A stretch of 64,000 bases of DNA. It comes from Eikenella sp. (GTDB lineage: Bacteria > Pseudomonadota > Gammaproteobacteria > Burkholderiales > Neisseriaceae). Numbering within the stretch: the first letter of the stretch is position 1; every line of letters begins with the position of its first letter. Under the pieces are notes generated by a model. The model worked only from the letters and a program-made list of their open reading frames with translations. It ran no database searches and was not told the origin of the DNA. Of this stretch, positions 23,373-39,860 are shown piece by piece. The position numbers were made by a program, and so were the translations under genes. The stretch covers positions 39,456 to 103,455 of the forward strand of contig JAUMZB010000002.1 in the NCBI GenBank assembly GCA_030528345.1. The letters are read 5' to 3'.

Positions 23373-23915
23373 TTATTCGGTGCGGAAATCGGGATCGACT
23401 TGCCGCCAGGCGCGCTCGATTTGCAGGCGGGCGCGCTTGAACTCGGCTTCGGTATAACGCACCCCCAAAGACTGCACTTGGCCGGCAATCAAAGCGGTGA
23501 GCCGCCCTTGTTTGCGCAGCAGCGACTGCCCGGTCGGAGAATCATAAAAAGCCAGCAACGCATCCACTTCCTCTTGGCTATAAATCTCCCGCACCGCCTG
23601 CGCGAAGACGGCTTTCATTTCACGGTGCAGCTCGGGCGAACCGATCGCCCGCTGCACCGCCTGGTCAATCAAAGGAAACACCGTTTTGCGCCAAGCATTC
23701 TGCTGCACCTCGGAATAACCGCGACGTTGCAAATCGTTCCGGAACTGCTCCGCCATCAAGGCGGACATGGCCGGTAGCAATTCGCTCAAGCCGGCCTCCA
23801 TATTCTGCACCGCCATCAGCCGCGCCACCGACTCCTCGCTCGGCGGCCGGGCGGCGGCAGGCACAGCCAGCAGCAAACCCAAAACAGACACACCGGCAGC
23901 CAACCATTTGTTCAT
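23373..23915 (-). CDS. DUF2059-family secreted protein
   Basis: Signal peptide (MNKWLAAGVSVLGLLLAVPAAA) followed by a helical DUF2059-like domain (..FYDSPTGQSLL..). Confidence 0.55.
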   Translation of the reverse strand: MNKWLAAGVSVLGLLLAVPAAARPPSEESVARLMAVQNMEAGLSELLPAMSALMAEQFRNDLQRRGYSEVQQNAWRKTVFPLIDQAVQRAIGSPELHREMKAVFAQAVREIYSQEEVDALLAFYDSPTGQSLLRKQGRLTALIAGQVQSLGVRYTEAEFKRARLQIERAWRQVDPDFRTE

Positions 23916-23942
23916 TTCAACTCCTTATTCTCTGAATCACAA

Positions 23943-24088
23943 CCTGAGACCTTATATATTGAAATTCCCAGATGCGGAGGCATCTCGAGGCACAGCAGCG
24001 CAGCGAGTGCAGCCCCATCATGAAGATAGATACCCCCTAAAGCATAAACGCACAACGCAGGAATGCGCCGCAGACGGGCAAAGGTCTC
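23943..24088. repeat. MITE-like repeat, family A (degenerate copy)
   Basis: Ends gagacctt... / ...gcaaaggtctc, with an internal cagcagcgcagcgagtg core shared with the other copies. Confidence 0.55.
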
Positions 24089-24180
24089 CATTTCGGAAAC
24101 CGTTTGTTTCCGTACAATGGCTACAGAGAGGCGTTAGAGAAGGGCACCGATAAAATCCCCATCACCAACAGATTCTAGGG

Positions 24181-24240
24181 CGTATCGTCATCATGCTTGC
24201 GAAGCTAAAATACCGCCGCAACGCTTGGTGACGACCCGCC
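24181..24240. repeat. mini-copy of the family B repeat (termini cgtatcgtcatcatgcttg ... ataccgccgcaacgcttggtgacgac)
   Basis: Its termini match those of the 39620-39860 element. Confidence 0.4.
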
Positions 24241-24681
24241 CTAAGTACGGGGGTTTTGAAAAGGTTTTAATTCTTCGATGATGATGTCCAAAGCCTGATA
24301 TAGATTCGCTATTGGTTCTTGGCCGATTTTTCCCGCAATGCTTTGGTATTCCTGAGCAATACGTTCTTTTGCCTGGGTATAGAGCTGTCGGGCCTGATCG
24401 GTCAGATGGATGCGGATGCGGCGCTGATCCGCCATCGGAATCTTTTCAATCAAGCCCAACTCTTCCATACGCTTCAGCATGCCGGCCATGCTGGGACTGA
24501 GAATCAGGCATTGTTCGCACAACTGGCGCGGCTCCAAATCGCCTTGCTCGGCCAGAGCCCGGATAATACGCCATTGCTGCTCGGTAACGCCAAACTCATT
24601 GAGTATGGGGCGAAATTGAGTCATAAAGCTTTCCCGGGCCTTATATAGCAACATGGGTAGGTTACGGTATTCTTGGCTCAT
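24241..24681 (-). CDS. hpaR: MarR-family homoprotocatechuate-degradation operon regulator
   Basis: 147 aa from MSQEYRNL. The segment FRPILNEFGVTEQQWRIIRAL aligns with E. coli HpaR (FRPIVKRHNLTEQQWRIVRIL). The ORF track extends upstream to 24954. Confidence 0.7.
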   Translation of the reverse strand: MSQEYRNLPMLLYKARESFMTQFRPILNEFGVTEQQWRIIRALAEQGDLEPRQLCEQCLILSPSMAGMLKRMEELGLIEKIPMADQRRIRIHLTDQARQLYTQAKERIAQEYQSIAGKIGQEPIANLYQALDIIIEELKPFQNPRT

Positions 24682-25180
24682 GGCTGAGGGCTGTTGGCGG
24701 CTAACATAATGGCGGTTTTTGATGAAATGTTCCGTCTGCTGCGGCAGTCCCGCAAGGGGTGGCAATGTGCGCAGCCGTGCTTTTACCCGATTACGGATGG
24801 CTTTCCTCGATGGCATCACGGATTGACGAAGCCAAAAACCGCTCATCATACAAATGCCGGCAAAACCTGACTGCCGCCGTATGAGCCAAGCTGCGTTTTT
24901 GCGGCCTGACCTCGCCATCCCGATACAATATAGAAGCGGTGTCCATAAAGCCATATGATTGTGTATAGGGTAGGCTTGATGGACACCATGTCGGCATCTT
25001 ATACCAAACCCAACAAATAAGCCATCATTCAGGCCGGCAGGCTAAAGATGCTCTGGAGGCAGGCACACCACCCTCCCCCGTGTGTGTTTGCATAGCAAAC
25101 CCGCCCTCGGTTTTGCGGGCGGGTTTCGCGGCGAAAAAAGCGCCGCAGATGGGATTTTGCAAAAATCTCAGGTTTGGAAA

Positions 25181-25978
25181 TCAGTATGGCGCCATATTGT
25201 TTTGGGCACCGCCGCCGAATTTGGCCATCAAGGAGACGGCTGCTTGGCGCAGCAGCAGGGTGTCCACCCCCACCAGCATAAAGCTGGCGCCCAGCCGTTC
25301 GTAGGCTTGCGCCACTTGCGGATCTGCCGAAAACACGCCGGCGGCCTTGCCGGCTTGGGCGATGGTTTGAATGGCCTGAGCCACCGCTTGTTGGACATCG
25401 GGATGCGAAGGCTGGCCCAAATGCCCCATGGATGCTGCCAAATCGGAGGGACCGATAAAAACGGCGTCCACGCCGTCCACGGTGGCAATCTCAGCCAAAT
25501 TTGCCAAGCCGGACACCGATTCTATTTGTACAATCAAACACATCTGCCCATCGGCCTGGGCGAAATAATCGGCCACCGCATTCCAGCGGGCGGCACGCGC
25601 CATGGCGGTGCCCACGCCGCGTATGCCTTGGGGCGGGTAGCGTGTGGCGCGCACCAGTGCGGCGGCCTGCCCGGCGGTTTCCACCATCGGAATCATCAGG
25701 GTTTGTGCGCCCACATCCAGCACCCGTTTGATGGTGGCCGGGTTGTGGTCTGCCAGACGCACCACGGCCTGCTGCGCCGGGTAGGCGGCCAATACTTGCA
25801 ACTGGTCGCGTATGCTGCGCACATCGTTGGGGCCGTGTTCGCCATCAATCAATAGCCAGTCAAAACCGGCGGTGGCCACCACTTCGGCCGCATAGGCGTC
25901 CCCCAGCCCCAGGAACAGGCCGATTTGGCGCTGGCGCTCATGCAGTTTTTGCTTGAAGCGATTGACGGGCATATCCAT
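25181..25978 (-). CDS. hpaI: 4-hydroxy-2-oxoheptanedioate (2,4-dihydroxyhept-2-enedioate) aldolase, HpcH/HpaI family
   Basis: 265 aa. Overall similarity to HpcH/HpaI-family class II aldolases (…LFLGLGDAYAAEVVATAGFDWLLIDGEHGPND…) and position immediately downstream of hpaH in the operon. Confidence 0.85.
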   Translation of the reverse strand: MDMPVNRFKQKLHERQRQIGLFLGLGDAYAAEVVATAGFDWLLIDGEHGPNDVRSIRDQLQVLAAYPAQQAVVRLADHNPATIKRVLDVGAQTLMIPMVETAGQAAALVRATRYPPQGIRGVGTAMARAARWNAVADYFAQADGQMCLIVQIESVSGLANLAEIATVDGVDAVFIGPSDLAASMGHLGQPSHPDVQQAVAQAIQTIAQAGKAAGVFSADPQVAQAYERLGASFMLVGVDTLLLRQAAVSLMAKFGGGAQNNMAPY

Positions 25979-25987
25979 AAACGCTCC

Positions 25988-26797
25988 TTATTGGCCGGTG
26001 ACAAAGCGGCAACTGATGCTGCCCAGGGGGCCGTAATCGATATGGAAAGTGTCGTTCGGGCGGATGCGCACCGGGCGGGTAAATGATCCGGCCAGTAAGA
26101 TTTGTCCGGCTTCCAAGGCGATGCCGTAGGGGGCAAATTTTTTGGCCAGCCAGGCAATGCCCTTGGCCGGATGCCCCAGTACCCCGGCGGCAACGCCGGT
26201 TTCTTCGATCACGCCGTTGCGGTACAACAGGGCGGCCACCCAGCGCAAGTCCACTTCGGTGGGTTTGACCGGACGCCCGCCCATGATGATGCCCAAGTTG
26301 GCCGCATTGTCGGAAATGGTGTCCATTACCTTGCGCGGCCGCTTGCTCTCCGGGTCTATCCGGTGGCAGCGGGCATCAATCAGCTCCACGGCAGGCACCA
26401 CATATTCGGTAGCGGAGAGCACGTCGGTCAGGCTGACCTGATCGCCTTGCAAAGGCTGGTGCAAAATAAAGGCGAGTTCTACTTCCAGCATGGGATCGAT
26501 GAAGGAATCCATGGGAATGTCGCTGCCGTCGGCATACAGCATATCGTCCAGCAAGGTGCCGTAATCGGGCTCGTCTATCTGGGACGACTGCTGCATGGCG
26601 CGCGAAGTCAGGCCGATTTTGTGGCCGATGATGCGGCGGCCTTCGGCCAGTTTCAATTGAATCAGGGCGCGTTGGATGGCATAGGCGTCTTCAATGGTGA
26701 TTTCCGGGTGGCTTAAGGAAATCTGGCGTATTTGTACGCCGCTTTTTTCGGCATGATACAGGCGCTCGGCTGCTGCTTTAATCTCTGCTTCTTGCAT
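25988..26797 (-). CDS. hpaH: 2-oxo-hept-4-ene-1,7-dioate hydratase
   Basis: [27 protein letters not shown]... is typical HpaH/MhpD-family hydratase. Start set at the internal Met. Confidence 0.85.
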
Positions 26798-26819
26798 AAG
26801 GCATCCTTTGGTGGCCGGT

Positions 26820-27212
26820 TTAACGGTAGCGGTCGTGCAGATTGTTTTGTTTCCAGGTGCCGTTGCCAAATTCGGAGTATTCCAGCGACAAGGCCAGCCC
26901 CCGCTGCTTGAACGCTTCGGCAAAGTGCGCGCTCATCAGGGCAAACAGATCATCACACACTTTTTGCAGTTGCTCCGGCGTGCGGCCGCGGCCAATTTTC
27001 AAATGCGCATGCACAAAGGCATCGCTGGGCTCTAGCTTTCGGCCGGCGCCGTCGGCAATGGTGTATTCGCGCACGCAATGGGCGCGCACGCGGATGCCGC
27101 CGGTGGGAAACACGCCGCCTTGGGCGATAATCACCTGGGCGGATTTGTCCACCAAACCTTGAATGTCTTGGTCGGACAGATTGTCGCTGTATTCGTAAAT
27201 CAGATGTGGCAT
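26820..27212 (-). CDS. hpaF: 5-carboxymethyl-2-hydroxymuconate isomerase
   Basis: 130 aa, [12 protein letters not shown]..., CHMI family. Confidence 0.85.
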
Positions 27213-27221
27213 GGCTTTCTT

Positions 27222-28106
27222 TCAAATCCGAATGTCGATTTCGGCGCGATTGACGGGCAATACCGGGAAAATGGCATTGATTTGGCCGGTACCGGAGGAA
27301 GGGAAATAAGGCGTGACCACCTCCACCTTGCCGCGGTAGCTGTCCCAACCCATGGCGCCCAGCAACATGGCCGTATCGTGCATCATGCCTTCGCCGTAGC
27401 ATTTTTCCGCATACATAGGCAGCATATTGCAAAAGGTCGGCCAGTCGCCGCTTTCCCACAGCTTGACCACATACTCGTCGACGGAACCCAAAAACGGATC
27501 CCAAATCTTGTGGAAAAACGCGTCGCCGCTGCCGTTTTGGGCAAAACGGTGCGACAAAGACCCGCTGGCAAAAATGGCCACATTGCCGGCGTATTTTTCT
27601 TCCACCGCCTGACGCACGGCCAGCCCCAGCTTGGCGCTGTCTGCCAGGCTGTGCACCTGGCACATGGCGGAAATCGAGATCACGCGGTAATGCTTGTCGC
27701 CGTTCATATAGCGCATCGGCACCAGCGTGCCGTATTCCGGCCCCAAGCTGGTATCGGCATGCGCGCGCGTGTGCACGCCCATGTGGTTGGCGCATTCGGC
27801 AATCATTGCCCCCAATTCTGGATTGCCGGGGTAGTCGTAGGGCATGTTTTTAATAAAGTGCGGCAACTCGTTGCTGGTATAAATGCCCTCAAAATGGGGC
27901 GCACAATTGATGTGGTAGCCGCTGTTCACCAGCCAATGGGTGTCGAACACCACAATGGTGTCCACCCCCAAGGCACGGCAACGGCGGTCGATTTCATGAT
28001 GGCCGTCGATCGCCTTTTGGCGGCAGCCTTTGTGCGGCCCGTCCAACTCAGATAAATACATGGAGGGCACATGGGTGATTTTGGCGGCCAAAGAGAGGGT
28101 ACCCAT
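27222..28106 (-). CDS. hpaD: 3,4-dihydroxyphenylacetate 2,3-dioxygenase (LigB-type extradiol dioxygenase)
   Basis: 294 aa from MGTLSLAAKITHVPSMY, with HpaD/LigB class III extradiol dioxygenase similarity. Confidence 0.85.
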   Translation of the reverse strand: MGTLSLAAKITHVPSMYLSELDGPHKGCRQKAIDGHHEIDRRCRALGVDTIVVFDTHWLVNSGYHINCAPHFEGIYTSNELPHFIKNMPYDYPGNPELGAMIAECANHMGVHTRAHADTSLGPEYGTLVPMRYMNGDKHYRVISISAMCQVHSLADSAKLGLAVRQAVEEKYAGNVAIFASGSLSHRFAQNGSGDAFFHKIWDPFLGSVDEYVVKLWESGDWPTFCNMLPMYAEKCYGEGMMHDTAMLLGAMGWDSYRGKVEVVTPYFPSSGTGQINAIFPVLPVNRAEIDIRI

Positions 28107-28107
28107 T

Positions 28108-29562
28108 TCACACCCCCCAGCGCGGAATCGGGTGGCTGCCGTAAGAGACGGCCACGTTTTTGGCTTCGCAGAAGGCTTCGTAGCTGTAATGATTGCCTTC
28201 GCGGCCGGTGCCGGAGGCTTTGGTGCCGCCGAAGGGCTGGCGCAAGTCGCGCACATTCTGGCTGTTGACAAAAGTCATGCCCGCATCGATGGCTTTGGCC
28301 AGGCGCAACATGCGGCCGGTGTTTTCCGTCCATAAATAAGACGACAGGCCATAAGGGGTATCGTTGGCAATCTGTAGCGCCTCTTCTTCGGTTTTAAAAG
28401 GAATAATGCACGGCACCGGTCCGAAAATTTCGTCCTGGGCGATGCTCATTTTGTTGTCGACATCGGCAAACACCGTGGGCGCCACCCAGAAGCCGTCTTT
28501 AAATTCGGGCGCCACTTCGGGCGTGTGGCCGCCCAACACCATGCGCGCCCCTTCGCGCTGGCCGGCTTCGATATAGCCGGTCACTTTCTGCCAGTGCGCC
28601 TGGCTGATCATGGGGCCGATAATGGTTTGCGGGTCTTGCGGATCGCCCAGCGTCAATTTGGCGGCGCGCGCAACAAAATCGGCCACGAATTTGTCGTAAA
28701 TGCTGCGTTCCACCAAAATGCGGGAGCCGGCGGTGCAGCGTTGGCCGTTATTGGAGAAAATCATGAATAAGGCGGCATCCAGCGCCCGTTCGTAATCGGC
28801 ATCCGCAAAAATGATGAACGGTGATTTGCCGCCCAATTCCATGGAGAATTTTTTCAGGCCGGCCGCACGGATGATGCGCTCGCCGGTAACCGTGGAGCCG
28901 GTAAAGGAGATGGCGCGCACATCGGGGTGCGACACCAGAGGCTCGCCGGCCTCCGTGCCGTAACCGTGCACCAGATTGAAGACCCCGTCGGGCACGCCTG
29001 CTTCTTGGATCAATTCCCCCAAGCGGGTGACGGTCATGGGCGAGAGCTCCGACATTTTCATGACTGCGGTATTGCCCAAAGCCAAGCAGGGCGCCGTTTT
29101 CCAGGTAGCCGTCATAAACGGCACATTCCACGGCGAAATCAGGGCGCAAACGCCCACCGGCCGCCATAGGGTGTAGTTGAGGTGGCCGGTATCCGAATCA
29201 TAGGTTTCGCCGTGCTGGTGTTGCATCAGCTCGGCAAAATAGTAGAAATTGTCGGCCGCGCGCGGAATCAGGGCTTTTTGGGTTTGGCCGATGACCTGGC
29301 CGCAGTCCTCGGTTTCCATGGCCGCCAGCTCGGGGACGTTTTTCACAATCAAATCGCCCACATTGCGCATCAGACGCGCGCGCTCTTTGGCCGGGGTGGC
29401 CGCCCAAGCCGGGAAGGCCGCCTTGGCTGCGGCAACGGCCGCATTCACTTCTTTGCGCCCGCCACGGGCGGCATGGGCAATCACTTTGCCGGTGGCCGGG
29501 TTGATAACTGCAAATGTTTCCGGGCTCTCTACCTGCCGGCCATTGATTAAATGCTTGATCAT
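28108..29562 (-). CDS. hpaE: 5-carboxymethyl-2-hydroxymuconate semialdehyde dehydrogenase
   Basis: 484 aa from MIKHLINGRQVESPETFAVINPATG. ALDH superfamily, positioned between hpaG and hpaD as in hpa operons. Confidence 0.85.
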   Translation of the reverse strand: MIKHLINGRQVESPETFAVINPATGKVIAHAARGGRKEVNAAVAAAKAAFPAWAATPAKERARLMRNVGDLIVKNVPELAAMETEDCGQVIGQTQKALIPRAADNFYYFAELMQHQHGETYDSDTGHLNYTLWRPVGVCALISPWNVPFMTATWKTAPCLALGNTAVMKMSELSPMTVTRLGELIQEAGVPDGVFNLVHGYGTEAGEPLVSHPDVRAISFTGSTVTGERIIRAAGLKKFSMELGGKSPFIIFADADYERALDAALFMIFSNNGQRCTAGSRILVERSIYDKFVADFVARAAKLTLGDPQDPQTIIGPMISQAHWQKVTGYIEAGQREGARMVLGGHTPEVAPEFKDGFWVAPTVFADVDNKMSIAQDEIFGPVPCIIPFKTEEEALQIANDTPYGLSSYLWTENTGRMLRLAKAIDAGMTFVNSQNVRDLRQPFGGTKASGTGREGNHYSYEAFCEAKNVAVSYGSHPIPRWGV

Positions 29563-29590
29563 AGGGTTACCCTTGTTGTGAATAGATGTA

Positions 29591-31045
29591 TTATGCGTGC
29601 TGGCTGAAATAGTGCGCATCATCGGCAATGGTGTTGCGCAAAACGCCCAAACCTTCGATTTCGGTTTCCACCACATCGCCGGGCCGCACATCGGCCAGCC
29701 CCTCCGGCGTACCGGTCAGAATGATGTCGCCCGGCTGCAGGGTCATGATGGAAGACAGATACGCCACCAGGTCATAAACACTGAAAATCATGTCGCGGGT
29801 GCTGCCCTGCTGGGTGGTTTTGCCATTGACGCGGGTGGTCAGGGCCAGCGCCATCGGGTCGTCAATCTGGTCGGCGCGGGTCAGCCAGGGGCCGATGGGG
29901 GTGGCGTGATCGCGGTTTTTCACCCGCAAATTGGGGCGGTAATAGTTTTCCAGATAATCACGAATGGCATAGTCGTTGACCACGGTATAGCCCAAAATGT
30001 AGTCTTTGGCGGTTTCACGGCTGACATTGCGCGCGGTTTTGCCGATGACCACCGCCAATTCGCATTCATAATGCATGTATTCAACGCCGTCCGGGCGGCG
30101 GGTCAGCGCCTGATGCCCCGTCAGTGTATTGGCGCCTTTTAAAAACACCAGCGGTGTTTCCGGCGCTTTAAAAGCCAGCTCTTTGGCGTGGTCGGCATAA
30201 TTGAGCCCCAAGGCGAATACCGTCCCGGCAGCCAGCGGCGGCAACCATTCCACCGCCGTTGCGGCAAACAGCCGTCCGTCGGCCGTGGCCACTTGGCCGT
30301 CTGCTGCCGGGGTTACCGTGTGGATTTGGCCGTTGATGCGCACACGACCCATGCGGGGCGCGTGCATGCTCAAGCGGTGTTCATGTGTGCATACGGGCGG
30401 GGCAGGCGGGCTGAGGGTGAAATCCAGCGCCCCCAAGCCTTTGGCGGTGATGCGCACCTCATCGGCCGCAGCCGCTTGGCAGGCCTGATACGGCACGCCC
30501 ATCAACAAGACATCGCCTGCATGCAGCGTCATAAACTCGGTCACATCGGCCAACAGCTGTGCCGCATCACGCGACAAATCCGCCAAGCTGCGCGCGCTGA
30601 GCGCCTGACCGTTTACCGCCGTATGAATGCACACATCTTGCAAATCGCCCACCGCCGCCAAGGTTTGTACCTCGCCCAGCAGCAAAGAGCCGTCGAAACA
30701 TTTTTCACGCACCGCCGGCCGGTAATAGCTGTCATGCGGCACGCTTAAATCCACGGCCAAAGCCACGCCCGCCAGCGCTTCCAGCGCCTGTTCCCGACTC
30801 AGGCGGCGGGCGGTTTTGCCCAGCACCAGCGCCACGGTGGCACCCACTTCCAGCGCCTCCGCGCCCGCAGGCAAAACCACCACGCCCGAGGTATTGACGG
30901 TGTTGGCGGGCTTGATATACAGCACCGGCGCTTGGGGCGGCGCCTGATAGGGCGCGGCTGTCAATTGCCCGCCCAAATCGGCCAGGCTTTGCCGGTCATT
31001 TAAAATAAGGCCATAAATGGTGCGCTGAACGCCATTGTGTTGCAT
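29591..31045 (-). CDS. hpaG: bifunctional 2-hydroxyhepta-2,4-diene-1,7-dioate isomerase / 5-oxopent-3-ene-1,2,5-tricarboxylate decarboxylase (two FAH domains)
   Basis: 484 aa. N-terminus RTIYGLILNDRQSL...APPQAPVLYIKPANTV aligns with E. coli HpaG, and the duplicated FAH fold is present. Confidence 0.85.
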   Translation of the reverse strand: MQHNGVQRTIYGLILNDRQSLADLGGQLTAAPYQAPPQAPVLYIKPANTVNTSGVVVLPAGAEALEVGATVALVLGKTARRLSREQALEALAGVALAVDLSVPHDSYYRPAVREKCFDGSLLLGEVQTLAAVGDLQDVCIHTAVNGQALSARSLADLSRDAAQLLADVTEFMTLHAGDVLLMGVPYQACQAAAADEVRITAKGLGALDFTLSPPAPPVCTHEHRLSMHAPRMGRVRINGQIHTVTPAADGQVATADGRLFAATAVEWLPPLAAGTVFALGLNYADHAKELAFKAPETPLVFLKGANTLTGHQALTRRPDGVEYMHYECELAVVIGKTARNVSRETAKDYILGYTVVNDYAIRDYLENYYRPNLRVKNRDHATPIGPWLTRADQIDDPMALALTTRVNGKTTQQGSTRDMIFSVYDLVAYLSSIMTLQPGDIILTGTPEGLADVRPGDVVETEIEGLGVLRNTIADDAHYFSQHA

Positions 31046-31210
31046 AGGTTTTCCATTTCTGTTGGCACGGCGATGCGCCGTTCAATCTGCCCGCGCCCTA
31101 CCCGAGCCAAACGCCTGCTACCGTGTTTTCAGGTAGCCTGCGCGATGGCCGGGCGTGGTGCCAGGGCATACCGTTTAGGGGTGTGTTGAGCGGTTTGCAC
31201 GTCTGCCGGT

Positions 31211-32635
31211 TTAGGCAGACTTATGAATGTGCACGGTTTGGATAGAAGTGAATTCTTCCAGGCCGACGGCGCCAAATTCGGCGCCGAAACCGGATTGTTT
31301 CACGCCGCCAAAAGGCGCGTTGGGCTGAATGGCGCCGTGGTGGTTGACCCAGGCGCTGCCGCATTCCAGCCGTTGCGCCAACGCTTGGGCGGCCTCGATA
31401 TTGCTCGACCAAACAGAGCCGCCCAAACCGTAAGCGCTGCGGTTGGCGCGCTGCAATACTTCCTCAACATCACTAAATTGGATAATGGGCAAAATCGGGC
31501 CGAACTGTTCTTCATCTACCAAGCGCGCGCCGTCGCTGATGTTGCCCACCAAGGTGATGGGGTAAAAATAGCCGCTGTCATCCACTATCTCGCCGCCGCA
31601 CAGGAAATGGGCGCCGCCAGCGCGGGCGTCTTCGGCCAGCGCTTGCACAATGTCAAGCTGTTTGGCGTTTTGCAGGGGGCCAAAATCGCTGTCTTCCTCC
31701 AGGCCGTTACCCGTTTTGACGGATTGGGCAATGCCAACCAAGGCGGCACACAAACGCTCATACACCGATTCGTGCACATACAGCCGTTTCAAAGCAGCAC
31801 AGGTTTGGCCGTTATTGATAAAAGCGGTGGCAAAAATCTTGGGCGCAATGGCTTCGATATCGGCGTCGGCCAGCACAATGCCGGCATCGTTGCCGCCCAA
31901 TTCCAGCGTGAGGCGTTTCAAATTGGCGCTGGCATTTTGCATCACCGACCGCCCGGTGGGGCTGGAGCCGGTAAACACCACTTTGTCGATGTCCGGATGC
32001 GCCGCAATGGCCGCACCGATGTCGCCTTTGCCGGACACGATGTTCAGCACGCCGGGCGGCAAAATGTCTTTGGCCAGACGGGCCAGCTTCAGCACCGTCA
32101 AAGGCGTCAGCTCGGAAGGCTTGAGCACCACGGTATTGCCCGTGAGCAGAGCCGGAACGGCGTGCCAAATGCTGATCATCAGCGGGTAGTTCCACGGCGT
32201 AATCGAGCCGACCACACCCAAGGGCTTGCGGTGAACCTCTATCCGCAACGCTGCGTCGTCCTGAATCACGGCGGGCTGCAATTCATAATCACAGGTGCCG
32301 CGTATCCAAGCCAAAGTGCCGCCCAGCTCAAAACCGGCGCCCATGCCGAAAAAGCCTTTCAGCGGCTTGCCTTGCTCCTGGGTGAGCGTGGCGGCCAAAT
32401 CGTCCGCCGCCGCTTCCAAAGCGTCGGCCAAAGCCAGCAAACGGCTTTTACGCTCGGCATAAGCCAGCGCCGACCAAGCCGGGAATGCGGCGCGCGCGGC
32501 GGCCACCGCCTCATCCAGCTGCGCCAGGCTCGCCTGGGGCGCTTGCGCAATCACGGCCTTGGTAGCCGGGTTGATCACGTCAAAAGTATGGGCGCCGTCC
32601 AGCAGTTGCCCGTTGATCAGCATTTGGTAATTCAT
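31211..32635 (-). CDS. NAD(P)-dependent aldehyde dehydrogenase (candidate aryl-acetaldehyde dehydrogenase, FeaB-like role)
   Basis: 474 aa in the ALDH superfamily (MNYQMLINGQLL...). Heads the hpaG-E-D-F-H-I gene string on the same strand. Confidence 0.8.
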   Translation of the reverse strand: MNYQMLINGQLLDGAHTFDVINPATKAVIAQAPQASLAQLDEAVAAARAAFPAWSALAYAERKSRLLALADALEAAADDLAATLTQEQGKPLKGFFGMGAGFELGGTLAWIRGTCDYELQPAVIQDDAALRIEVHRKPLGVVGSITPWNYPLMISIWHAVPALLTGNTVVLKPSELTPLTVLKLARLAKDILPPGVLNIVSGKGDIGAAIAAHPDIDKVVFTGSSPTGRSVMQNASANLKRLTLELGGNDAGIVLADADIEAIAPKIFATAFINNGQTCAALKRLYVHESVYERLCAALVGIAQSVKTGNGLEEDSDFGPLQNAKQLDIVQALAEDARAGGAHFLCGGEIVDDSGYFYPITLVGNISDGARLVDEEQFGPILPIIQFSDVEEVLQRANRSAYGLGGSVWSSNIEAAQALAQRLECGSAWVNHHGAIQPNAPFGGVKQSGFGAEFGAVGLEEFTSIQTVHIHKSA

Positions 32636-32752
32636 CGTCTCTATCTCCTTCTTGATTGGAATGGCCGATTGCCTGCCCGCGTCACAGCCTTGCCGGCCGA
32701 AGCCTCCCCTTCGCCACAGAAAAATTCGCAGATGTGGGACAGGGGCAATTCA

Positions 32753-32903
32753 GACTGAGACCTTTGCAAAACCCCCATCTGCGGCGCATTTCTGCGTTGC
32801 GTGCTGCTCGCTCGCTTGCCTATCGTGTGATATGTCTGCGCTCGCTGCGCTGCTACGCCTTGAACTGCATCCACATCTGAGGGTTTTGCAAAGGTCTCAG
32901 ACT
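32753..32903. repeat. MITE-like repeat, family A (about 150 bp, opposite orientation)
   Basis: ctgagacctttgcaaaaccccc...gggttttgcaaaggtctcag terminal inverted repeats. Confidence 0.65.
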
Positions 32904-32943
32904 GGATATGGGTTGCAATCCTTCTATTTTTTACGATTTTCTT

Positions 32944-33107
32944 AGAACCTGTTCAAAGTCTTCTTGCGCAGCGGTTTTTCGAGGCAAAAACCGCAGATGC
33001 AAGGCGAAAATGCGCGCAAGATTGAACATCTTGCAAGTATTTTCAACGCAGCAGATGCGGGATTTTGACCGGAAATACCGCCGCAACGAAGACTTTGAAC
33101 AGGTTCT
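32944..33107. repeat. MITE-like repeat, family B (about 165 bp, TIR agaacctgttcaaagtcttc / gaagactttgaacaggttct)
   Basis: A near-identical copy lies at 50018-50201, and partial or diverged copies at 38905-38972, 39620-39860 and 24181-24240. Confidence 0.65.
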
Positions 33108-33372
33108 TATTGAAAAGATGGCGCAATGCAATGCGCTTGGTAGGCAGGCGACGGCATAGCCGCATCGCTTAGCAAGCATCCATACAACACTAATATATTA
33201 GCATTTGAAGTGTGCGTCAATGGCTTTGTCGGTTTGGCCGGCTTGTGGCCTGCCGTTTCATCATTGACACCAGGCATGTTGCGGATTGGTTTTCAGGTAG
33301 CCTGAATTCGATGGCCAACAAACCGCCTGCTGACGAAGGTGCGTTGTTAGGCGGTTTGCTGGCCGGGGCGGC

Positions 33373-34770
33373 TTACGGTTTGTTCTCTGTTTGGGCGGAG
33401 GGGAGGGGCTCGCGCTCAAACAAACCTTTTTTCATCACCAATTTCACCCACAAGGCCGACAATACCACCACCACCAACAACAGGCTGCCGGTCATGGTGT
33501 AAACCGTTTGCGTCATTTCCGGGGTGGGCGAATTATTGATAAAGAGATAGATCATGCTGGCAATGCCCAAGATTTGCAGCACGGGATACATCGGGGTTTT
33601 ATAGGGGCGGGCATGATGGGGGGCAATTTTGCGCAGAATCATCAAATCCAGGTGGGAGATGGCATAGGCCAGTACCCAGGTTGCCGCGGCGGCAATCAGT
33701 AAAGTGATGATGGTTTCTACGTTGCTGCCCAAAATCAAGGTCGGCAATAGGGTGATGCCGCCCATAAACAAGATGGCCACCCAAGGCGTTTTGAATTTGG
33801 GATGGATTTTTTTAAACACGCCCAATGCCTGGCCGTTTTCCGCCATGCCGTAGAGCATGCGCGATACGCTGGCCAATACGGTATTGACCGTGCTGCCGCT
33901 GGCGGTTAAGCACACCACGGCCAACACCCATTTCGAAGACTCGCCGAATACGGCGATAAAGTAGTCGAAATGCGGTACCGGCGAATTGGTCAGGGTTTCG
34001 CGGCTGATATAGGTGCCGGCGCCCAAGGCCAGTAAGGCATAAATGCCGAAGATCACGAAAGCGCCGATAAACATGGAGCGCGGAATGTCGCGGGCAGGGC
34101 TTTTCGACTCCTCAATCAGCGGGCACACAAATTCCAAGCCGAAATAAGCCCACATGCCCAAACCCAACAGCGCCAGCATGCTGCCGTCTATCGCGCCCCA
34201 ATCGGCAAACGGAGTGTGCGGCGGCGGCACCGGCGCCCCCGTCTGGCTGATGGCCACCACGCTGATTACGGCCAAAAACACCAACATCACATAAGTCAGA
34301 AAACTTTGCACATTGGCGAAAATATCCGTACCCAAAATATTCAGCAAGGTAAACAGGCCAACCACGGCAATCACCACCACAGTGGGCGAAAAGACACCGG
34401 GGAATAAGACATTGAGCACTTCGCCCACCAGCATCACTTCGGCCGACAAGCCGAACATGGTCAGCATGATATAGCCGGTCATGGTGGCCAAAATGGCCGG
34501 GAAATGCCCCATGGCCATTTCTGTGTAAGTACTCAGGCTGCCGGCTTTGGGGAACATCAGCGACAGTTCCGCAAAGGTGGAGGCATTGCACAGAGCGATA
34601 ATCAGGCCGATCACCAGCACCAGTATGAAGTCGGTGCCGCCGTAGCCCACGCCCTGCAACACAGACACAATAGGGCCTTGCCCCACCACCAGCCCCACTG
34701 CGATGGCAAGCAGACTGCCAAATTTTAATAGTCGCTTGAATTTGCTGTTTTCAGCATTTGCATTGCTCAT
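33373..34770 (-). CDS. APC-superfamily amino acid / aromatic amine permease
   Basis: 465 aa with 12 TM helices. Amino acid permease motifs (GSLLAIAVGLVVGQG..., FAELSLMFPKAGS). Confidence 0.8.
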   Translation of the reverse strand: MSNANAENSKFKRLLKFGSLLAIAVGLVVGQGPIVSVLQGVGYGGTDFILVLVIGLIIALCNASTFAELSLMFPKAGSLSTYTEMAMGHFPAILATMTGYIMLTMFGLSAEVMLVGEVLNVLFPGVFSPTVVVIAVVGLFTLLNILGTDIFANVQSFLTYVMLVFLAVISVVAISQTGAPVPPPHTPFADWGAIDGSMLALLGLGMWAYFGLEFVCPLIEESKSPARDIPRSMFIGAFVIFGIYALLALGAGTYISRETLTNSPVPHFDYFIAVFGESSKWVLAVVCLTASGSTVNTVLASVSRMLYGMAENGQALGVFKKIHPKFKTPWVAILFMGGITLLPTLILGSNVETIITLLIAAAATWVLAYAISHLDLMILRKIAPHHARPYKTPMYPVLQILGIASMIYLFINNSPTPEMTQTVYTMTGSLLLVVVVLSALWVKLVMKKGLFEREPLPSAQTENKP

Positions 34771-35152
34771 GGTTCATTCCTCTGTAGGTTGCGGATGATT
34801 GTTATTGGGATAAAGGGGTTGTTTCGATACCGAAGCACGGGGCAGATTCCGGAATGTGTGTCTGCCGATATATGTCTTCGGTGTTTCCGGCCAGCATCCC
34901 GGGACTGCTGCGTTGTGCTCAAAACGGCAGGGGAATGCCGTCAAGGTGCTCAATTTTGCGTGCGCACCCCGCAGCGACAGATTTGCACAAAACCGTCTTT
35001 TAAACAGACAGTTGGACAAATGCCGAGAAGCTGCTTGTGAAAATAATACTAATATATTCCTAAAAAGGCAAACATTAATTTACATGTGCCGTCGAGACCA
35101 TGCGGATGTGTGCTTGGAGCGGGGAGCGTGCTTATCCTGCAAATTGGCAAAC

Positions 35153-35340
35153 CTGAGATCTTGACCCTCCGTCTGCGGCGTATTTTTGCGTTGTGTGTTG
35201 ATGCCGGTGTGGGTATGGCATGCCTGCTTGCCCATCTGATGGACGGAGCGGTCGCGCAGGAGTGTTCGATGATCATGCTTGCTGTGCTGCTGCGCCTTGA
35301 ACTGCATCCTCATCCGGAAGTTGGGCAAAGGTCTCAAGAT
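35153..35340. repeat. MITE-like repeat, family A (full-length copy)
   Basis: Termini acctgagatcttgac... / ...gcaaaggtctcaagat. Confidence 0.6.
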
Positions 35341-35624
35341 CTCAAACGGCATCAACGCTGTTCTGGCCGTCTTGCCTGCCGGCGATCCGGTGGGCTGTCC
35401 GGTCTGCGGTTTGGGTACAGCGGGGCATTATCGACAGCCCTCGATGCAAGCGGCTGATGGGCATTTTGCCGGTTTGCTTGAGCGGACAAGGCGTCGCTTG
35501 CTAATTTGCAAATATATTAGTAATATGGAGGCAGAAAAATATGGGGATAAGTATTTATCTTTGATTTTAAAGGAAAACATTATCCTTTCTTCTTGCTGCA
35601 ATTGAGTGTAAAGGAAAAAGAATC

Positions 35625-37502
35625 ATGCAATTTCATCATCACGGTTATGTTTCAACCAATCCGAGAGTGCAGGCGGCGCAAGGGACAGGCGTTAACCGCC
35701 CCGACGATTTGCCGGATGTGATGGATGTGTTGATTGTCGGCTCCGGGCCGGCCGGCATGCTGTTGGCCGCCCAGCTGTCCCAATACCCGAGCATTGTGAC
35801 CCGCATCATTGAAAAACGGAACGGGCGTTTGGAAATCGGGCAGGCAGACGGCATTCAGGCGCGCAGCGTGGAAACTTTCCAAGCGTTCGGTTTTGCCGAG
35901 GCCATTACCCAAGAGGCTTATCGAATTTGCGAGATGAATTTTTGGGCGCCTTCCAAGACCGATCCCGGCCACATTGTCCGCACCCACCGTACTCTGGATG
36001 ATGAGCATGGCGTCAGCGAGTTTCCCCACTTGATTGTCAATCAAGCCCGGGTTTTGGATTATTTCGCCGATGTCGCCAAAAATTCGCCTGCCCGCATTGA
36101 ACCGGACTATGGGGTGGAATTTGTGGGTTTGCAGGTGGGCGAAGGGGAATATCCGGTGTCGGTGACCATCCGCTACACCGCCGGAAGTAGGGAAGGGGAA
36201 AAACGCACTGTTCGGGCCAAATACGTTGTGGGCTGTGACGGCGCCCGCAGCGCTGTCCGCCAAGCCATTGGCCGCCATCATATCGGTGGCGTTTCTCTGC
36301 ATGCTTGGGGGGTGATGGATATTTTGGCGGTGACGGATTTTCCCGACATCCGTAAAAAATGTGCCATTCAGTCGCATGAAAACGGCAGTATTTTGCTGAT
36401 TCCCCGCGAAGGCGGACATCTGTTCCGCATGTATGTGGATTTGGGCGATGTGGCGGAAAACGACAACCATGCCGTCCGCCAGACGCCGCTGGCCGACATC
36501 ATCGCCAAAGCCAATGCCATCATCCATCCCTACCAATTGGAAGTCAAAGATGTGGCGTGGTGGTCGGTCTATGAGGTGGGTCACCGGGTCACCGATAAAT
36601 TTGACGACGTGGATGCAGGTAAAGAGGGGGAACGGTTGCCGCATGTGTTTATTTGCGGCGACGCCTGCCATACGCACAGCGCCAAAGCCGGGCAGGGCAT
36701 GAATGTATCCATGCAGGACGGTTTTAATTTGGGCTGGAAGTTGGGATCGGTGCTGACCGGACGCAGCCCGGAATCATTGCTGGCCACTTATTCGGCCGAA
36801 CGGCAGATTGTGGCGCAAGACCTGATTAACTTTGATAAAGAGTGGTCCAGTTTGATGGCCAAAAAGCCGGAAGAGTTTGACAGCCCGGACGAACTCAGCG
36901 AGTACTATGTGAGAACGGCCGAGTTTCCGGCAGGCTTTATGACCGAATACGCGCCTTCCATGATTATCGGCAGTACCGATCATCAGGCGCTGGCCAAAGG
37001 TTTTCCGGTGGGCAAGCGCTTTAAGTCGGCGCCGGTGGTGCGGATCGCCGATGCGGTGCCGGCGCATTTGGGTCATCATGCCAAAGCGGATGGCCGGTGG
37101 CGTATTTATGCTTTTGCCGATATCGATAAAACCCGTTTGCACGCATTGGCGCAATGGCTGGGGCACGATAAGGCTTCCCCGTTGCTGACATACACGCCGA
37201 AAGATGCTGATCTGGACAGTGTATTCGATGTCAAGGCGATTTACCGGCAGCCGCATTACGAGATTGACATAAGGGATATTCCGGACGTTTTCCTACCACG
37301 GGTAGGCCCCTTCCAATTGGTTGATTACGAAAAAATCTATGCCGCCGAGGAAGGACATTCCATTTTCGAGCTGCGCGAAATCGATTCGCAAGGCGCTTTG
37401 GTGGTGGTGCGTCCGGATCAATACGTTGCACACGTACTGCCGCTTACCGCCACCGACGAGTTGGCTGCTTTCTTTAAGCAAAATATGCTGGCTTGCCGTT
37501 AA
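35625..37502 (+). CDS. FAD-dependent aromatic-ring monooxygenase, phenol 2-monooxygenase (PheA/TfdB/MobA) family, with a C-terminal thioredoxin-like dimerisation domain
   Basis: 625 aa. GXGXXG (LIVGSGPAGM), DG motif and GDACHTHSAKAGQGMN FAD motif. RBS aggaaa upstream. Confidence 0.8.
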   Translation: MQFHHHGYVSTNPRVQAAQGTGVNRPDDLPDVMDVLIVGSGPAGMLLAAQLSQYPSIVTRIIEKRNGRLEIGQADGIQARSVETFQAFGFAEAITQEAYRICEMNFWAPSKTDPGHIVRTHRTLDDEHGVSEFPHLIVNQARVLDYFADVAKNSPARIEPDYGVEFVGLQVGEGEYPVSVTIRYTAGSREGEKRTVRAKYVVGCDGARSAVRQAIGRHHIGGVSLHAWGVMDILAVTDFPDIRKKCAIQSHENGSILLIPREGGHLFRMYVDLGDVAENDNHAVRQTPLADIIAKANAIIHPYQLEVKDVAWWSVYEVGHRVTDKFDDVDAGKEGERLPHVFICGDACHTHSAKAGQGMNVSMQDGFNLGWKLGSVLTGRSPESLLATYSAERQIVAQDLINFDKEWSSLMAKKPEEFDSPDELSEYYVRTAEFPAGFMTEYAPSMIIGSTDHQALAKGFPVGKRFKSAPVVRIADAVPAHLGHHAKADGRWRIYAFADIDKTRLHALAQWLGHDKASPLLTYTPKDADLDSVFDVKAIYRQPHYEIDIRDIPDVFLPRVGPFQLVDYEKIYAAEEGHSIFELREIDSQGALVVVRPDQYVAHVLPLTATDELAAFFKQNMLACR

Positions 37503-37574
37503 GCAGATGACTTTGCCTTGAGTTCGGGTTTCACGACAAACCCACCCATGCAGATACGCCGGAGAAACAGACCC

Positions 37575-38876
37575 ATGCACATTGATGAAGCACCCACTTA
37601 TTATACGGCCACGCGGCGCTACCACCTGTCCTTTCCTTCCCTGGAAACCGATATCCAAACAGAAGTGGTGATTATCGGCGGCGGCTTTTCAGGTATCCAC
37701 ACGGCTTTGGAGCTGGCCGAGCAGGGCGTAACGGACACGGTTGTGTTGGAAGCCCGTTACTTGGGTTACGGCGGTACCAGCCGCAATGGCGGACAAGTCA
37801 TGGCCGGCATCGGGCATGATATCGACGCCATTAAGGCCGACGTGGGCGAAGACGGATTGAAGGCCATTTTCTCGTTAAGCGACATGGGGCCCGAAATTAT
37901 GCGTGAGCGCATCAAGCGCTACGATATCGATGCCGATTTTCACAGCGGCTACGGTTACATGGCCTACAACGAGCGGCAGGCGAAAACATTAAGAGCGTGG
38001 GAGAAGGAGTTTAAATCACTGAACTCTCCCCATGAAATCCGCTACCTGGAAGGCAAGGAAGTGGGCGAGATTATCGGCTCGGAAGTTTATCGCGCCGCCT
38101 TGCTGCACCGCGGCGGCGGCCATGTGCACTCGCTCAATCTCTTATTGGGCGAAGCCAAAGCACTCACGGAAATCTACGGTGCCCGCATTTTTGAGTACAG
38201 CCCGGCATTGCAGGTTACCTATGGCGACCGAATTGAAGTCAGAACCGCCAAAGGCATTATCCGTGCCAAAAAACTGGTTTGGGCGGTAGACGGCTTCAAC
38301 AACCGTATCGAACCGGAAATTCACGGCCGTACCATCAATGTTTATGCTTTCAACTCGGTCACTGAGCCGTTAAGCGAAGCGCTGATTCAGCGCATCAGCC
38401 CGATTCGCGGCGCCTACAGCGACATCCGCCCGGTTATCAATTATTACCGCGTAACCCCGGACAACCGTCTGATGTTCGGCTCATCCACCGGCTACATCGA
38501 ATATATGCCCTCGGATTTGAAAGCGTGGAATAAAAAATTGATGGTAGAAGTATTCCCCTATCTGAAAGACGTGAATATCGATTTGGCATGGGGCGGCCCC
38601 ATGGCGGCCTCGCGTAATCTTTTCCCCCAAATCGGCACCTTGCAAAGCCGGCCCAATGTTTTTTATGTGCAAGGTTATTCGGGCTTCGGCGTCACCCCCA
38701 GCCAAATCATCTGCAAAATTTTGGCCGAAGGCATTCTGGGCGGCTCCGAACGCTATCGCTTGCTCAGCAGCATCCGCCATGCCGAGATTGCCCATAAAGA
38801 CCGTTACCGTGCCCTGCTGGTGAGTTTGGGCAAAATCATGCACCAGACTTCAGGTTATTGGCACGGCCGCAGTTAA
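37575..38876 (+). CDS. FAD-dependent oxidoreductase, DAO family (gamma-glutamylputrescine oxidase PuuB/OrdL-like amine oxidase)
   Basis: 433 aa from MHIDEAP. VVIIGGGFSGIHTALELAEQG is a dinucleotide-binding motif. Confidence 0.75.
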   Translation: MHIDEAPTYYTATRRYHLSFPSLETDIQTEVVIIGGGFSGIHTALELAEQGVTDTVVLEARYLGYGGTSRNGGQVMAGIGHDIDAIKADVGEDGLKAIFSLSDMGPEIMRERIKRYDIDADFHSGYGYMAYNERQAKTLRAWEKEFKSLNSPHEIRYLEGKEVGEIIGSEVYRAALLHRGGGHVHSLNLLLGEAKALTEIYGARIFEYSPALQVTYGDRIEVRTAKGIIRAKKLVWAVDGFNNRIEPEIHGRTINVYAFNSVTEPLSEALIQRISPIRGAYSDIRPVINYYRVTPDNRLMFGSSTGYIEYMPSDLKAWNKKLMVEVFPYLKDVNIDLAWGGPMAASRNLFPQIGTLQSRPNVFYVQGYSGFGVTPSQIICKILAEGILGGSERYRLLSSIRHAEIAHKDRYRALLVSLGKIMHQTSGYWHGRS

Positions 38877-39061
38877 AACCGGCTTGAAAGTCTGAAAGCC
38901 TGCTCATTATTTTCTGACGCAGCAGACGCGGGATTTCGACCAACCGCCGCAACGGAAACTTTGAACCGGTTCTTCCCATCCGGAAACAGTTCGTGGGCGC
39001 AAACTGTTTCGAGATACGGCAAGCGCGCCTACCCATCATTTAGCAAAAAAGGATATGTGCA

Positions 39062-39433
39062 ATGAGTCTGACACCGCTGAAAAAAGGCATGACCCTGCAA
39101 GAACTGGATTTGATTGGCCCGTTAACCGTTTTGGGCGGTGAAATCTTGGAAGGCGGAGAAGTGAAAGCCTATGCCAAAGGCACCTATGGCGATCCAGGGG
39201 CGCCGATCAGCGCCGGCTATTTCGGTACTAATAAGGGTCGCTACCGCCTGGTTTACCCGTTTAGCGAACAAGCAACCATTATGCAGGGGGAAGTACGCAT
39301 TACGGATGAAAGCACCGGCGAAACCCACCATTTCAAAGCCGGAGATTCCTGGTTTATCACCAAAGGCACCTCCACCGTATGGGAAGTATTGACCGACCAC
39401 TACACCAAGCACTATCTGTCGTTCAACGAATAG
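39062..39433 (+). CDS. cupin-domain protein (cupin_3/DUF861-like)
   Basis: 123 aa. The two-His cupin motif region (GEVRITDESTGETHHFKAGDSWFI) is present. Confidence 0.55.
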   Translation: MSLTPLKKGMTLQELDLIGPLTVLGGEILEGGEVKAYAKGTYGDPGAPISAGYFGTNKGRYRLVYPFSEQATIMQGEVRITDESTGETHHFKAGDSWFITKGTSTVWEVLTDHYTKHYLSFNE

Positions 39434-39435
39434 CC

Positions 39436-39533
39436 CGAGACCGTTGCAAACCCTCCAGATGCGGATGCAGTTCAAGGCGTAGCAGCGCACAACGCAGAAA
39501 TGCGCCGAAGATGGGGGTTTTGCAAAGGTCTCG
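39436..39533. repeat. MITE-like repeat, family A (short form, about 98 bp, internal deletion)
   Basis: gagaccgttgcaaaccctccagatgcgg...gggggttttgcaaaggtctc. Starts immediately after the cupin stop codon. Confidence 0.6.
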
Positions 39534-39619
39534 CCCCTCTGCAAATCTGAAAACAAACCCGTGTACCGGCCCGCCCGGCCGTGCGGCTAGCATTGACTGC
39601 AAGCCGTTACCGTCTTAGG

Positions 39620-39860
39620 GCGTGTCGTCATAATGCTTGAGAAGCGGTTTTTTTAGCTTCGCAAGTCCGCTGCGCTACCGAGGCAAAACCCGCAGCTGCA
39701 AGGCTCACTCGAAGAGGGCGGTTTTACACGCTACGCCAGTCAAACCAGCCAGCGCAGCAAGATGGGACATCTTGCGGGCATTTTCTGCGTCCCCTTGGGG
39801 GATAACGCTCCAACTACGGGTTTTGACCAAAAATACCGCCGCAACGCTTTGTGAGGACAC
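39620..39860. repeat. family B-related repeat (long, diverged variant)
   Basis: Shares the ggtttttcgaggcaaaacccgcag...gggattttgaccaaaaataccgccgcaacg core with the 32944-33107 and 50018-50201 copies. Confidence 0.5.

Follow-up and report, generated by a model that had tools for sequence, protein, structure and literature searches.

A horizontally acquired cassette with homoprotocatechuate genes, filled, partly deleted, or absent in the Neisseria shayeganii group

The analyzed stretch, 64,000 nucleotides of the Eikenella sp. contig JAUMZB010000002.1 (hereafter, the window), contains an inserted island located between a gene for a DUF2059 protein and an epimerase-like gene (Table 1). The open reading frame (ORF) listing combined with NCBIfam and Pfam searches places hpaR, an operon composed of an extra aldehyde dehydrogenase (ALDH) gene and hpaGEDFHI, and a gene for an APC-family permease on the minus strand of the island; genes for a flavin monooxygenase (FMO), a DAO-family oxidase, and a cupin are on the plus strand. 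The first-pass annotation of this sequence had proposed both the minus-strand string of hpaR, hpaI-H-F-D-E-G, and the extra ALDH, which is confirmed by the ORF listing and NCBIfam/Pfam, and the permease, monooxygenase, oxidase, and cupin, which are confirmed by family searches. All island gene products are full length relative to their profiles; as they align end to end with these profiles, the pathway genes look intact. An independently assembled Logan contig, L040, reproduces window positions 23674–32784 at 100% identity, which rules out an assembly artefact at the left junction.

HpaR, HpaH, HpaD, HpaE, and HpaG score above the NCBIfam curated equivalog cut-offs, and HpaI 3 bits below. All six meta-cleavage enzymes (HpaD, E, F, G, H, and I) and HpaR are present in the island; judged by these family assignments, the lower pathway is the standard homoprotocatechuate (3,4-dihydroxyphenylacetate) meta-cleavage route. 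No HpaB or HpaC gene of the two-component hydroxylase HpaBC was found in the island, with every ORF accounted for. The hpa cluster of Escherichia coli W/C comprises the hpaGEDFHI meta operon, hpaR, hpaBC, hpaX, and hpaA (the canonical pathway is summarized in PMC3053370). The island is similar to it in having the same six meta-cleavage enzymes, the gene order G-E-D-F-H-I, a MarR-type HpaR, and a LigB-type HpaD. It differs in having a MobA-like single-component monooxygenase in place of HpaBC, and neither HpaX nor HpaA; in the position of hpaR, which is downstream of hpaI in the same orientation and not divergent; in the extra ALDH heading the operon; and in the attached, apparently amine-type upper module (permease, DAO-family protein, and cupin).

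In a DusA scan with one genome per species, no close relative other than Neisseria shayeganii 871 (96% amino acid identity) was found. The flanking DNA of the window is about 90% identical to that of strain 871, and by this measure the window comes from a sister species of N. shayeganii, which is known from dog plaque and human wounds. The flanks had initially been described as core genes; the DUF2059 assignment (Pfam PF09832) and the conservation of the flank genes stand, while the labels "ubiJ" and "epimerase" have no Pfam or NCBIfam match. In 38 other dusA loci (Neisseria, Kingella, Eikenella, Snodgrassella, and others), no 183-aa ORF, DUF2059, hpa, or LOG gene is found beside dusA; since synteny is not kept, these loci are unusable as an outgroup.

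The comparison of synteny in relatives that the first-pass annotation had proposed reveals alleles without the island. DUF2059 homologs, 73% identical, were found on Logan metagenome contigs L047–L051, where the gene order is GST, DJ-1, GH3, DUF8410, LOG, a 274-aa gene, a 44-bp gap, DUF2059, a 183-aa gene, and Dus; here, LOG and the epimerase-like gene abut DUF2059, the 183-aa ORF, and dusA. By blastn, L047 and L051 are collinear with the window up to 23881/23903 and from 39873 onward, and the empty contigs are 89.5–90.3% identical to window positions 21066–23881 and 39873–44941. The spacer at the empty site is about 60–125 bp long (about 124 bp replaces window positions 23882–39872) and contains a native uptake sequence (eikDUS). 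The translated end of the epimerase-like ORF, up to the stop codon, is YSLWAAADECSSWP in the empty contigs, YSLWDEPLRR in 871, and YSLWDETLECVLTKRCGGIFGQNP in the window. Across the flank common to all, identity between the empty contigs and strain 871 is 97.5%, compared to 89.6–90.0% between the window and each of these; because of the former value, the island is polymorphic for presence/absence inside N. shayeganii itself.

Uptake sequences of the Eikenella type, AGGCTACCTGAA (AG-eikDUS), number 31 in the window, and those of the Simonsiella type, AGGCTGCCTGAA (AG-simDUS), eight; the two dialects of the DNA uptake sequence coexist within 64 kb, e.g., at 8125, 9159, 44167, and 48604. Only two of the 57 uptake-sequence cores of the window lie in the island, versus 14.2 expected (P = 1.6e-5); the 14 cores at the 871 locus are all outside the island, in the flank. 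GC content is 0.52–0.60 in the island versus 0.60–0.68 in the flanks, and GC content at third codon positions (GC3) is 0.56–0.72 versus 0.73–0.83. The closest HpaD proteins outside the group (82–85% identical) are encoded on contigs with GC content 0.38–0.48 and without uptake sequences, and in Psychrobacter; the closest DAO proteins (80–82% identical) come from Comamonas, Paraburkholderia, and Burkholderia (Burkholderiales). Since the nearest HpaD and the nearest DAO homologs come from different lineages outside Neisseriaceae, the cassette is a mosaic of foreign origin, acquired horizontally. Horizontal acquisition, already suspected in the first-pass annotation, is thus borne out by the empty-site alleles, the uptake-sequence desert, the lower GC and GC3, and best homologs outside Neisseriaceae. 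The same annotation called hpa genes unusual for Neisseriaceae, and indeed, among the best 120 of 6731 HpaD homologs, those with a named source include no Neisseria, Kingella, or Eikenella except the source metagenome-assembled genome (MAG) itself. A megablast search against plasmids revealed no near-identical copy of the island, with only weak hpaD/E similarity of 72–75%.

Strain 871 carries the island at the identical site. Identity to the island of the window is 94.8% in the left part and 97–99.8% in the right part, compared to about 90% in the flanks. Informative sites were defined by a three-way comparison of 871, the window, and the empty contig L047. Up to approximately 23825, the left flank of 871 is of the shayeganii (L047) type at 255 informative sites versus 28 of the window type, while at 23826–23945 it is window-type at 34 sites versus two; this switch at about 23826 marks a crossover within the DUF2059 gene, at its 5' end. 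The island of 871 also has a deletion (Table 1), with junction GGTA/GATCATG showing 2-bp microhomology within hpaH and the permease gene. Since most of hpaH, hpaF-D-E-G, and ALDH is removed, strain 871 should be unable to run the predicted pathway. Two other explanations of the deletion were considered and rejected: a repeat-mediated event, as it ends inside genes with 2-bp microhomology, not at repeats, and a scaffold gap, as the sole run of Ns is at the locus end.

Minimal mobile elements of Neisseria are cassettes between conserved genes that are exchanged by homologous recombination only (PMC3898611, citing Saunders & Snyder 2002). Similarly, the island is located between two genes conserved in the window, 871, L047, and L051; its content varies by strain (full in the window, deleted in 871, empty in L047–L051); it has no mobility genes; and a homologous-recombination breakpoint is seen in the DUF2059 gene. 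It is unlike these elements in its large size (16 kb, 12 genes), in being seen in filled and empty states with no alternative cassette, and in its host, a Neisseria group that is not restricted to humans and has an Eikenella-type uptake sequence. In its behavior, the island matches a catabolic cassette of the minimal-mobile-element type. It differs from a canonical genomic island: there is no tRNA anywhere in the 64-kb window and no integrase or transposase ORF in the island region, and the border repeats are not conserved in 871. Integration specific to dusA was also considered and rejected, given two genes between dusA and the island and no integrase. Overall, this is a gene island of an ordinary kind, with content unusual for the family and an upper pathway that is probably non-canonical.

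Table 1. Features of the island and its borders (window coordinates; 871, N. shayeganii strain 871; MITE, miniature inverted-repeat transposable element)
Feature	Coordinates	Strand	Evidence and remarks
DUF2059 protein gene, left flank	23373–23915	minus	Pfam PF09832
Inserted island	23939–39872		~15.9 kb; blastn of the window versus L047rc and L051rc; junctions read by eye
MITE A1	23946–24090		degenerate; left border; shared with 871; fold z = -1.7
C1	24177–24243		67-bp internally deleted C element; 243 bp full length in 871
hpaR, MarR-family regulator	24241–24816	minus	TIGR02337, 139.7 bits (cut-off 121.2); gene call in L040
hpaI, 4-hydroxy-2-oxoheptanedioate aldolase	25181–25978	minus	TIGR02311, 365.5 bits (cut-off 368.8), E = 1e-109
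hpaH, 2-oxo-hept-4-ene-1,7-dioate hydratase	25988–26797	minus	TIGR02312, 445 bits
Segment deleted in 871	26225–33547		7.3 kb; most of hpaH, hpaF-D-E-G, ALDH, A2, B1, permease 3' end
hpaF, 5-carboxymethyl-2-hydroxymuconate isomerase	26820–27212	minus	NF011605, E = 2e-25; PF02962 (CHMI) on L040
hpaD, LigB-type 3,4-dihydroxyphenylacetate 2,3-dioxygenase	27222–28106	minus	TIGR02298, 456 bits
hpaE, 5-carboxymethyl-2-hydroxymuconate semialdehyde (CHMS) dehydrogenase	28108–29562	minus	TIGR02299, 716 bits
hpaG, bifunctional isomerase/decarboxylase	29591–31045	minus	TIGR02303 + TIGR02305
Extra ALDH, first gene of the operon	31211–32635	minus	proposed arylacetaldehyde dehydrogenase
MITE A2	32757–32898		whole-length hairpin; fold z = -10.3
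MITE B1	32944–33107		perfect 20-nt terminal inverted repeats; whole-length hairpin; fold z = -8.3
AT-rich palindrome CTAATATATTAG, copy 1	33190–33201		located 5' of the ALDH-hpa operon; putative operator or promoter element
APC-family permease	33373–34770	minus	TIGR00909 and others, all below cut-off
AT-rich box CTAATATATTAG, copy 2	35049–35060		located 5' of the permease gene; also kept in 871 and L059
MITE A3	35153–35336		
AT-rich box CTAATATATTAG, copy 3	35509–35520		located 5' of the FMO gene; identical among the window, L057, and L059
MobA-like single-component class-A FMO, 625 aa	35625–37502	plus	NF006144, 1015 bits
DAO-family FAD oxidoreductase, 433 aa	37575–38876	plus	PF01266; proposed amine oxidase or dehydrogenase
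B2	38905–38974		partial B-family copy
Cupin_3 protein, obligate DAO partner	39062–39433	plus	PF05899
MITE A4	39437–39533		absent in 871; whole-length hairpin; fold z = -6.8
C2	39616–39866		251-bp C-family element; TA target duplication; absent in 871
Epimerase-like gene, right flank	39814–40640	minus	no family hit; 3' end rewritten by the island, and again by C2

Repeats with three types of termini, A, B, and C, are seen in and around the island. The terminal inverted repeat of family A is GAGACCTTTGCAAAACCC...GGGTTTTGCAAAGGTCTC; family C has termini TAGGGCGTGYCGTCA and internal blocks in common with B. These repeats are short and non-coding, have terminal inverted repeats, are present in multiple copies, and show insertion polymorphism, as is characteristic of MITEs. 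Eight of the 11 copies lie in the island, which accounts for 35% of intergenic DNA of the window (binomial P = 0.011); the copies outside are at approximately 4107–4288 and 9170–9349 (A) and 50018–50200 (B). C-family termini are found at the two island borders only, in direct orientation. The terminal CTA of C1 overlaps the hpaR stop codon, and C2 provides the last 17 codons of the epimerase-like ORF. The C2 site is CCGTCT-TA-(element)-TA-GAGTCT in the window versus CCGTCT-TA-AGGGCT in 871, whose right border, without A4 and C2, runs ...GAATAACCCCTCTCC... and ...CCGTCTTAAGGGCTCATCCCAAAGCG... No insertion sequence with A, B, or C termini was found within the window, and no Rfam family in its 20–44 kb part. 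The repeat coordinates given in the first-pass annotation match the family A and B/C elements found here, and repeats are indeed located at both borders and in the large gaps; its two families are, however, three terminus types, and the copies do not occupy every gap, as 24817–25180 and 31046–31210 have none.

The A, B, and C families are, or recently were, mobile. Because A4 and C2 are absent from 871, which has the island at the same site, they are later arrivals; the repeats are genome-wide elements that colonised the large spacers of the island after its arrival. The repeats did not move the island: as it exists and transfers without the right-border copies, they are not its vehicle.

The Correia repeat-enclosed elements of pathogenic Neisseria are 100–155 bp long and have 26-bp inverted repeats and a TA duplication (PMC3898611). 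Family C is similar to them in the TA duplication, terminal inverted repeats of about 15–26 nt, the lack of coding capacity, and insertions that alter stop codons and the 3' ends of genes; A and B likewise form hairpins in intergenic DNA. The differences are the length of full-length C (243–251 bp), the distinct sequence, and the division into separate families A, B, and C. With up to two mismatches allowed, the pattern TATAGTGGATTAA, taken as the Correia terminus, has no match in the window. Outside the island, an A-family insertion polymorphism between 871 and the window is seen near a membrane-transport gene; 871 (L001, reverse complement 9195–9343) has a full family-A MITE beside an uptake sequence, and the window has a short remnant at 20957–21052. 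The gap beside dusA, 21023–21719, is unusually long (697 bp) and contains a family-A remnant; the plus-strand ORF at 20971–21594 has no family match.

The best solved relative of the FMO is the 3-hydroxybenzoate 4-hydroxylase MobA of Comamonas testosteroni (PDB 2DKH; E = 7e-201, 51% identity, full length), with which it shares the FAD_binding_3 and Phe_hydrox_dim architecture; unlike MobA, it is encoded among genes of homoprotocatechuate, not protocatechuate, catabolism. Characterized 3-hydroxybenzoate 4-hydroxylases (3HB4Hs) are 49–52% identical to each other (PMC13653839), and hence sequence alone does not fix the FMO substrate. On low-GC contigs L041–L046, the gene order is hpaG-E-D-F-H-I, ALDH, MFS transporter, FMO. 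A metagenome scan yielded 80 FMO relatives (64–80% identity), and among the loci with at least 12 kb of flank, hpa-type genes are within 10 kb of the FMO relative in 21 of 32. FMO relatives adjoin hpa genes in L041–L046, L061, L083, L076, and others, including actinobacterial-type clusters. In a neighbor-joining tree, the window FMO and 84 relatives (the 80 metagenome loci and L001, L041, L057, and L059) branch far from MobA. The clade of the window FMO comprises L041, L060–L063, L057, L059, and 871; outside the shayeganii group, four of its five members with usable flanks are hpa-linked, and no hpa neighbor is seen on L060, a 5-kb contig. In the literature searched, hydroxylation to homoprotocatechuate is credited to the two-component HpaBC. 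Based on the hpa gene context, the substrate that we propose for the FMO is 3- and/or 4-hydroxyphenylacetate, or the corresponding amine, which would be hydroxylated to the 3,4-dihydroxy compound. Some FMO-linked high-GC loci (in the L060–L139 set, e.g., L069 and L104) have a glyoxalase-type extradiol dioxygenase, an FAA-hydrolase/RraA fusion, an ALDH, and HpaH/HpaI-like genes.

The DAO gene is always followed by Cupin_3, and the pair is kept in L054–L059; the existence of a natural DAO–Cupin_3 fusion (P0232, 565 aa) supports the prediction that the two proteins are functional partners. The pair is located beside hpaI-F-D-E in Paraburkholderia ferrariae and beside an amino-acid permease in a Comamonas MAG. 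The FMO–DAO–cupin trio is found, at 90–96% amino acid identity, on L057, L058, and L059 with other neighbors; five Simonsiella-type uptake sequences in the 6 kb of L059 (1–6133) indicate another Neisseriaceae lineage. The trio itself could be mobile, as a sub-module. Its neighbors include an RpiR regulator upstream in L057 (1–5369) and a YidX_N protein downstream in L059. A PDB search with DAO and the cupin gave remote matches only (sarcosine oxidase, 6e-11; an uncharacterized cupin). The extra ALDH best matches aminobutyraldehyde and phenylacetaldehyde dehydrogenase models, all below cut-offs, and its ortholog (77%) adjoins the FMO ortholog in L062.

The box CTAATATATTAG is present in the window in three copies, all in promoter gaps of the island, versus 0.3 expected; none of 100 shuffles reached three. 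The spacer between copies 2 and 3 differs among lineages, while the two copies themselves do not. As the box is common to all three promoter gaps, with two copies kept across lineages, this suggests that the three island transcription units constitute one regulon.

We consider it probable that the island is an acquired catabolic cassette of about 15.9 kb that spread among sister lineages by recombination in its flanks, received its repeats later, and has an arylethylamine-to-meta-cleavage function. A lineage with about 90% identity to N. shayeganii would have received the cassette in the interval between its DUF2059 and epimerase-like genes, and the cassette, having no mobility genes of its own, would have passed between sister lineages via DNA uptake and homologous recombination in the flanks. 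The APC permease would import an arylethylamine (tyramine, m-tyramine, or dopamine); the DAO-family flavoenzyme and its cupin partner would convert the amine to the arylacetaldehyde, and the extra ALDH would convert this to hydroxyphenylacetate; the MobA-like monooxygenase, in the role of HpaBC, would yield homoprotocatechuate, to be converted by HpaD-E-F-G-H-I to pyruvate and succinate semialdehyde. The three transcription units would be under the joint control of HpaR and possibly of the shared AT-rich box. Family assignments and recurrent gene neighborhoods make this function likely, and the earlier metabolic reading, use of tyramine- or phenylethylamine-derived aromatics, is plausible and sharpened by the predicted gene content.

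A pathway of this kind is reportedly known from Pseudomonas putida U, where Arcos and colleagues are said to have described, in 2010, a 3,4-dihydroxyphenylacetate "catabolon" of tyn and hpa genes for tyramine and dopamine. The features in common with that system are linked modules and the sequence of amine, aldehyde, hydroxyphenylacetate, homoprotocatechuate, and meta-cleavage; the differences are the amine step, which in the island would be performed by DAO and the cupin, not by a TynA-type enzyme, and the hydroxylase, which appears to come from another family.

Several findings weigh against this interpretation. Natural transformation as the transfer route is what we infer rather than observe. 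In the right flank of 871, the signal is mosaic, with 18 sites of each type in the 350 bp that could be compared. Both genomes that carry the island have A1 directly at the left junction, and A1 may have had a role in the original insertion. The FMO is as close to MobA (51%) as characterized 3HB4Hs are to one another; the DAO family is labelled gamma-glutamylputrescine oxidase by sources, with glutamylation genes not in the island; the ALDH and permease of the window are non-orthologous to those beside DAO–cupin in Burkholderiales (30–40% identity); and no succinate-semialdehyde dehydrogenase was found in the island.

Some of these findings could mean that two unrelated modules are joined here, the hpa operon and an FMO–DAO–cupin–permease module acting on, e.g., 3-hydroxybenzoate, polyamines, or gamma-glutamyl amines. 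Apart from the full-length similarity of the FMO to MobA and the source label of the DAO family, this is favored by the other neighbors of the FMO–DAO–cupin trio in L057 and L059 (short contigs) and by the unequal identity of the left and right island parts to 871 (94.8% versus 97–99.8%). It is nevertheless unlikely, as FMO relatives are linked to homoprotocatechuate genes in many unrelated lineages (21 of the 32 long-flank loci), the DAO–cupin pair is linked to hpa genes in Paraburkholderia, the AT-rich box is common to the ALDH-hpa, permease, and FMO promoters, and no protocatechuate or glutamylation genes are present in the island.

The remaining alternatives concern the origin of the island, and both are very improbable. 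Mobilization as a composite MITE-bounded segment by a transposase that would act in trans on the end copies of A or C has in its favor that both borders in the window carry an A and a C copy, that C-family termini are found only there and in direct orientation, and that the TA duplication at C2 implies present or former transpositional activity of the family. However, in 871 the identical site is occupied by an island lacking A4 and C2, the left import junction of 871 is in flank DNA and not at a repeat, its deletion is not repeat-mediated, A and B copies are also found outside the island, elsewhere in the genome, and no transposase is present in the window region; on these grounds, the term "repeat-mobilised" of the first-pass annotation finds no support. 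The least probable alternative is an island ancestral to the N. shayeganii group, with the "empty" alleles being secondary deletions. Deletions do happen here, as 7.3 kb is gone in 871, and polarity has no rooted outgroup, synteny not being kept in other genera; but at the empty site the spacer contains a native uptake sequence and the epimerase-like gene has a complete 3' end that differs, uptake sequences are scarce in the island and its GC3 is lower, the similarity between the window and 871 in the island is far above that of the flanks, with a window-type tract entering the 871 flank, and the closest homologs are outside the family.

A more far-reaching version of the cassette interpretation, which we put forward tentatively and would not yet bet on, is that the FMO and its relatives are uncharacterized single-component hydroxyphenylacetate hydroxylases, that DAO and the cupin form a new flavin-dependent arylethylamine-oxidizing system, and that the cassette moves by transformation. 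If so, this FMO family would replace HpaBC in homoprotocatechuate pathways whose dioxygenase is of either the LigB or the glyoxalase type, and an oral Neisseria would consume host or microbial trace amines and catecholamines via a transformation-borne cassette.

The locus offers a case of a naturally transformable commensal gaining, sharing, and losing a whole catabolic pathway without mobility genes; the evidence consists of an allele without the island, a recombination tract of donor type, and an allele in decay. It also shows that border repeats can mislead, being here later colonists and not vehicles. The homoprotocatechuate pathway is extended to Neisseriaceae, and two testable enzyme assignments are suggested, a single-component hydroxyphenylacetate hydroxylase and a DAO–cupin amine oxidase. 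Both would be relevant to how tyramine, dopamine, and phenylacetates derived from polyphenols are used in oral and gut niches.

Two further regions of the window deserve mention. At 408–1249, two ORFs have GC3 of 0.38 versus about 0.75 in their neighbors; they encode a 179-aa protein without assignment (minus strand) and a 94-aa HTH_3 (Xre-type) regulator (plus strand), and appear to be a further small foreign module, perhaps a toxin–antitoxin pair. At 40620–44828, there is a block of LOG, DUF8410-like, GH3, DJ-1, and GST genes, kept in the N. shayeganii contigs L047 and L051; LOG (cytokinin-riboside-phosphate hydrolase family) and GH3 (acyl-acid amido synthetase family) are plant-hormone-type enzymes, odd in an animal commensal.

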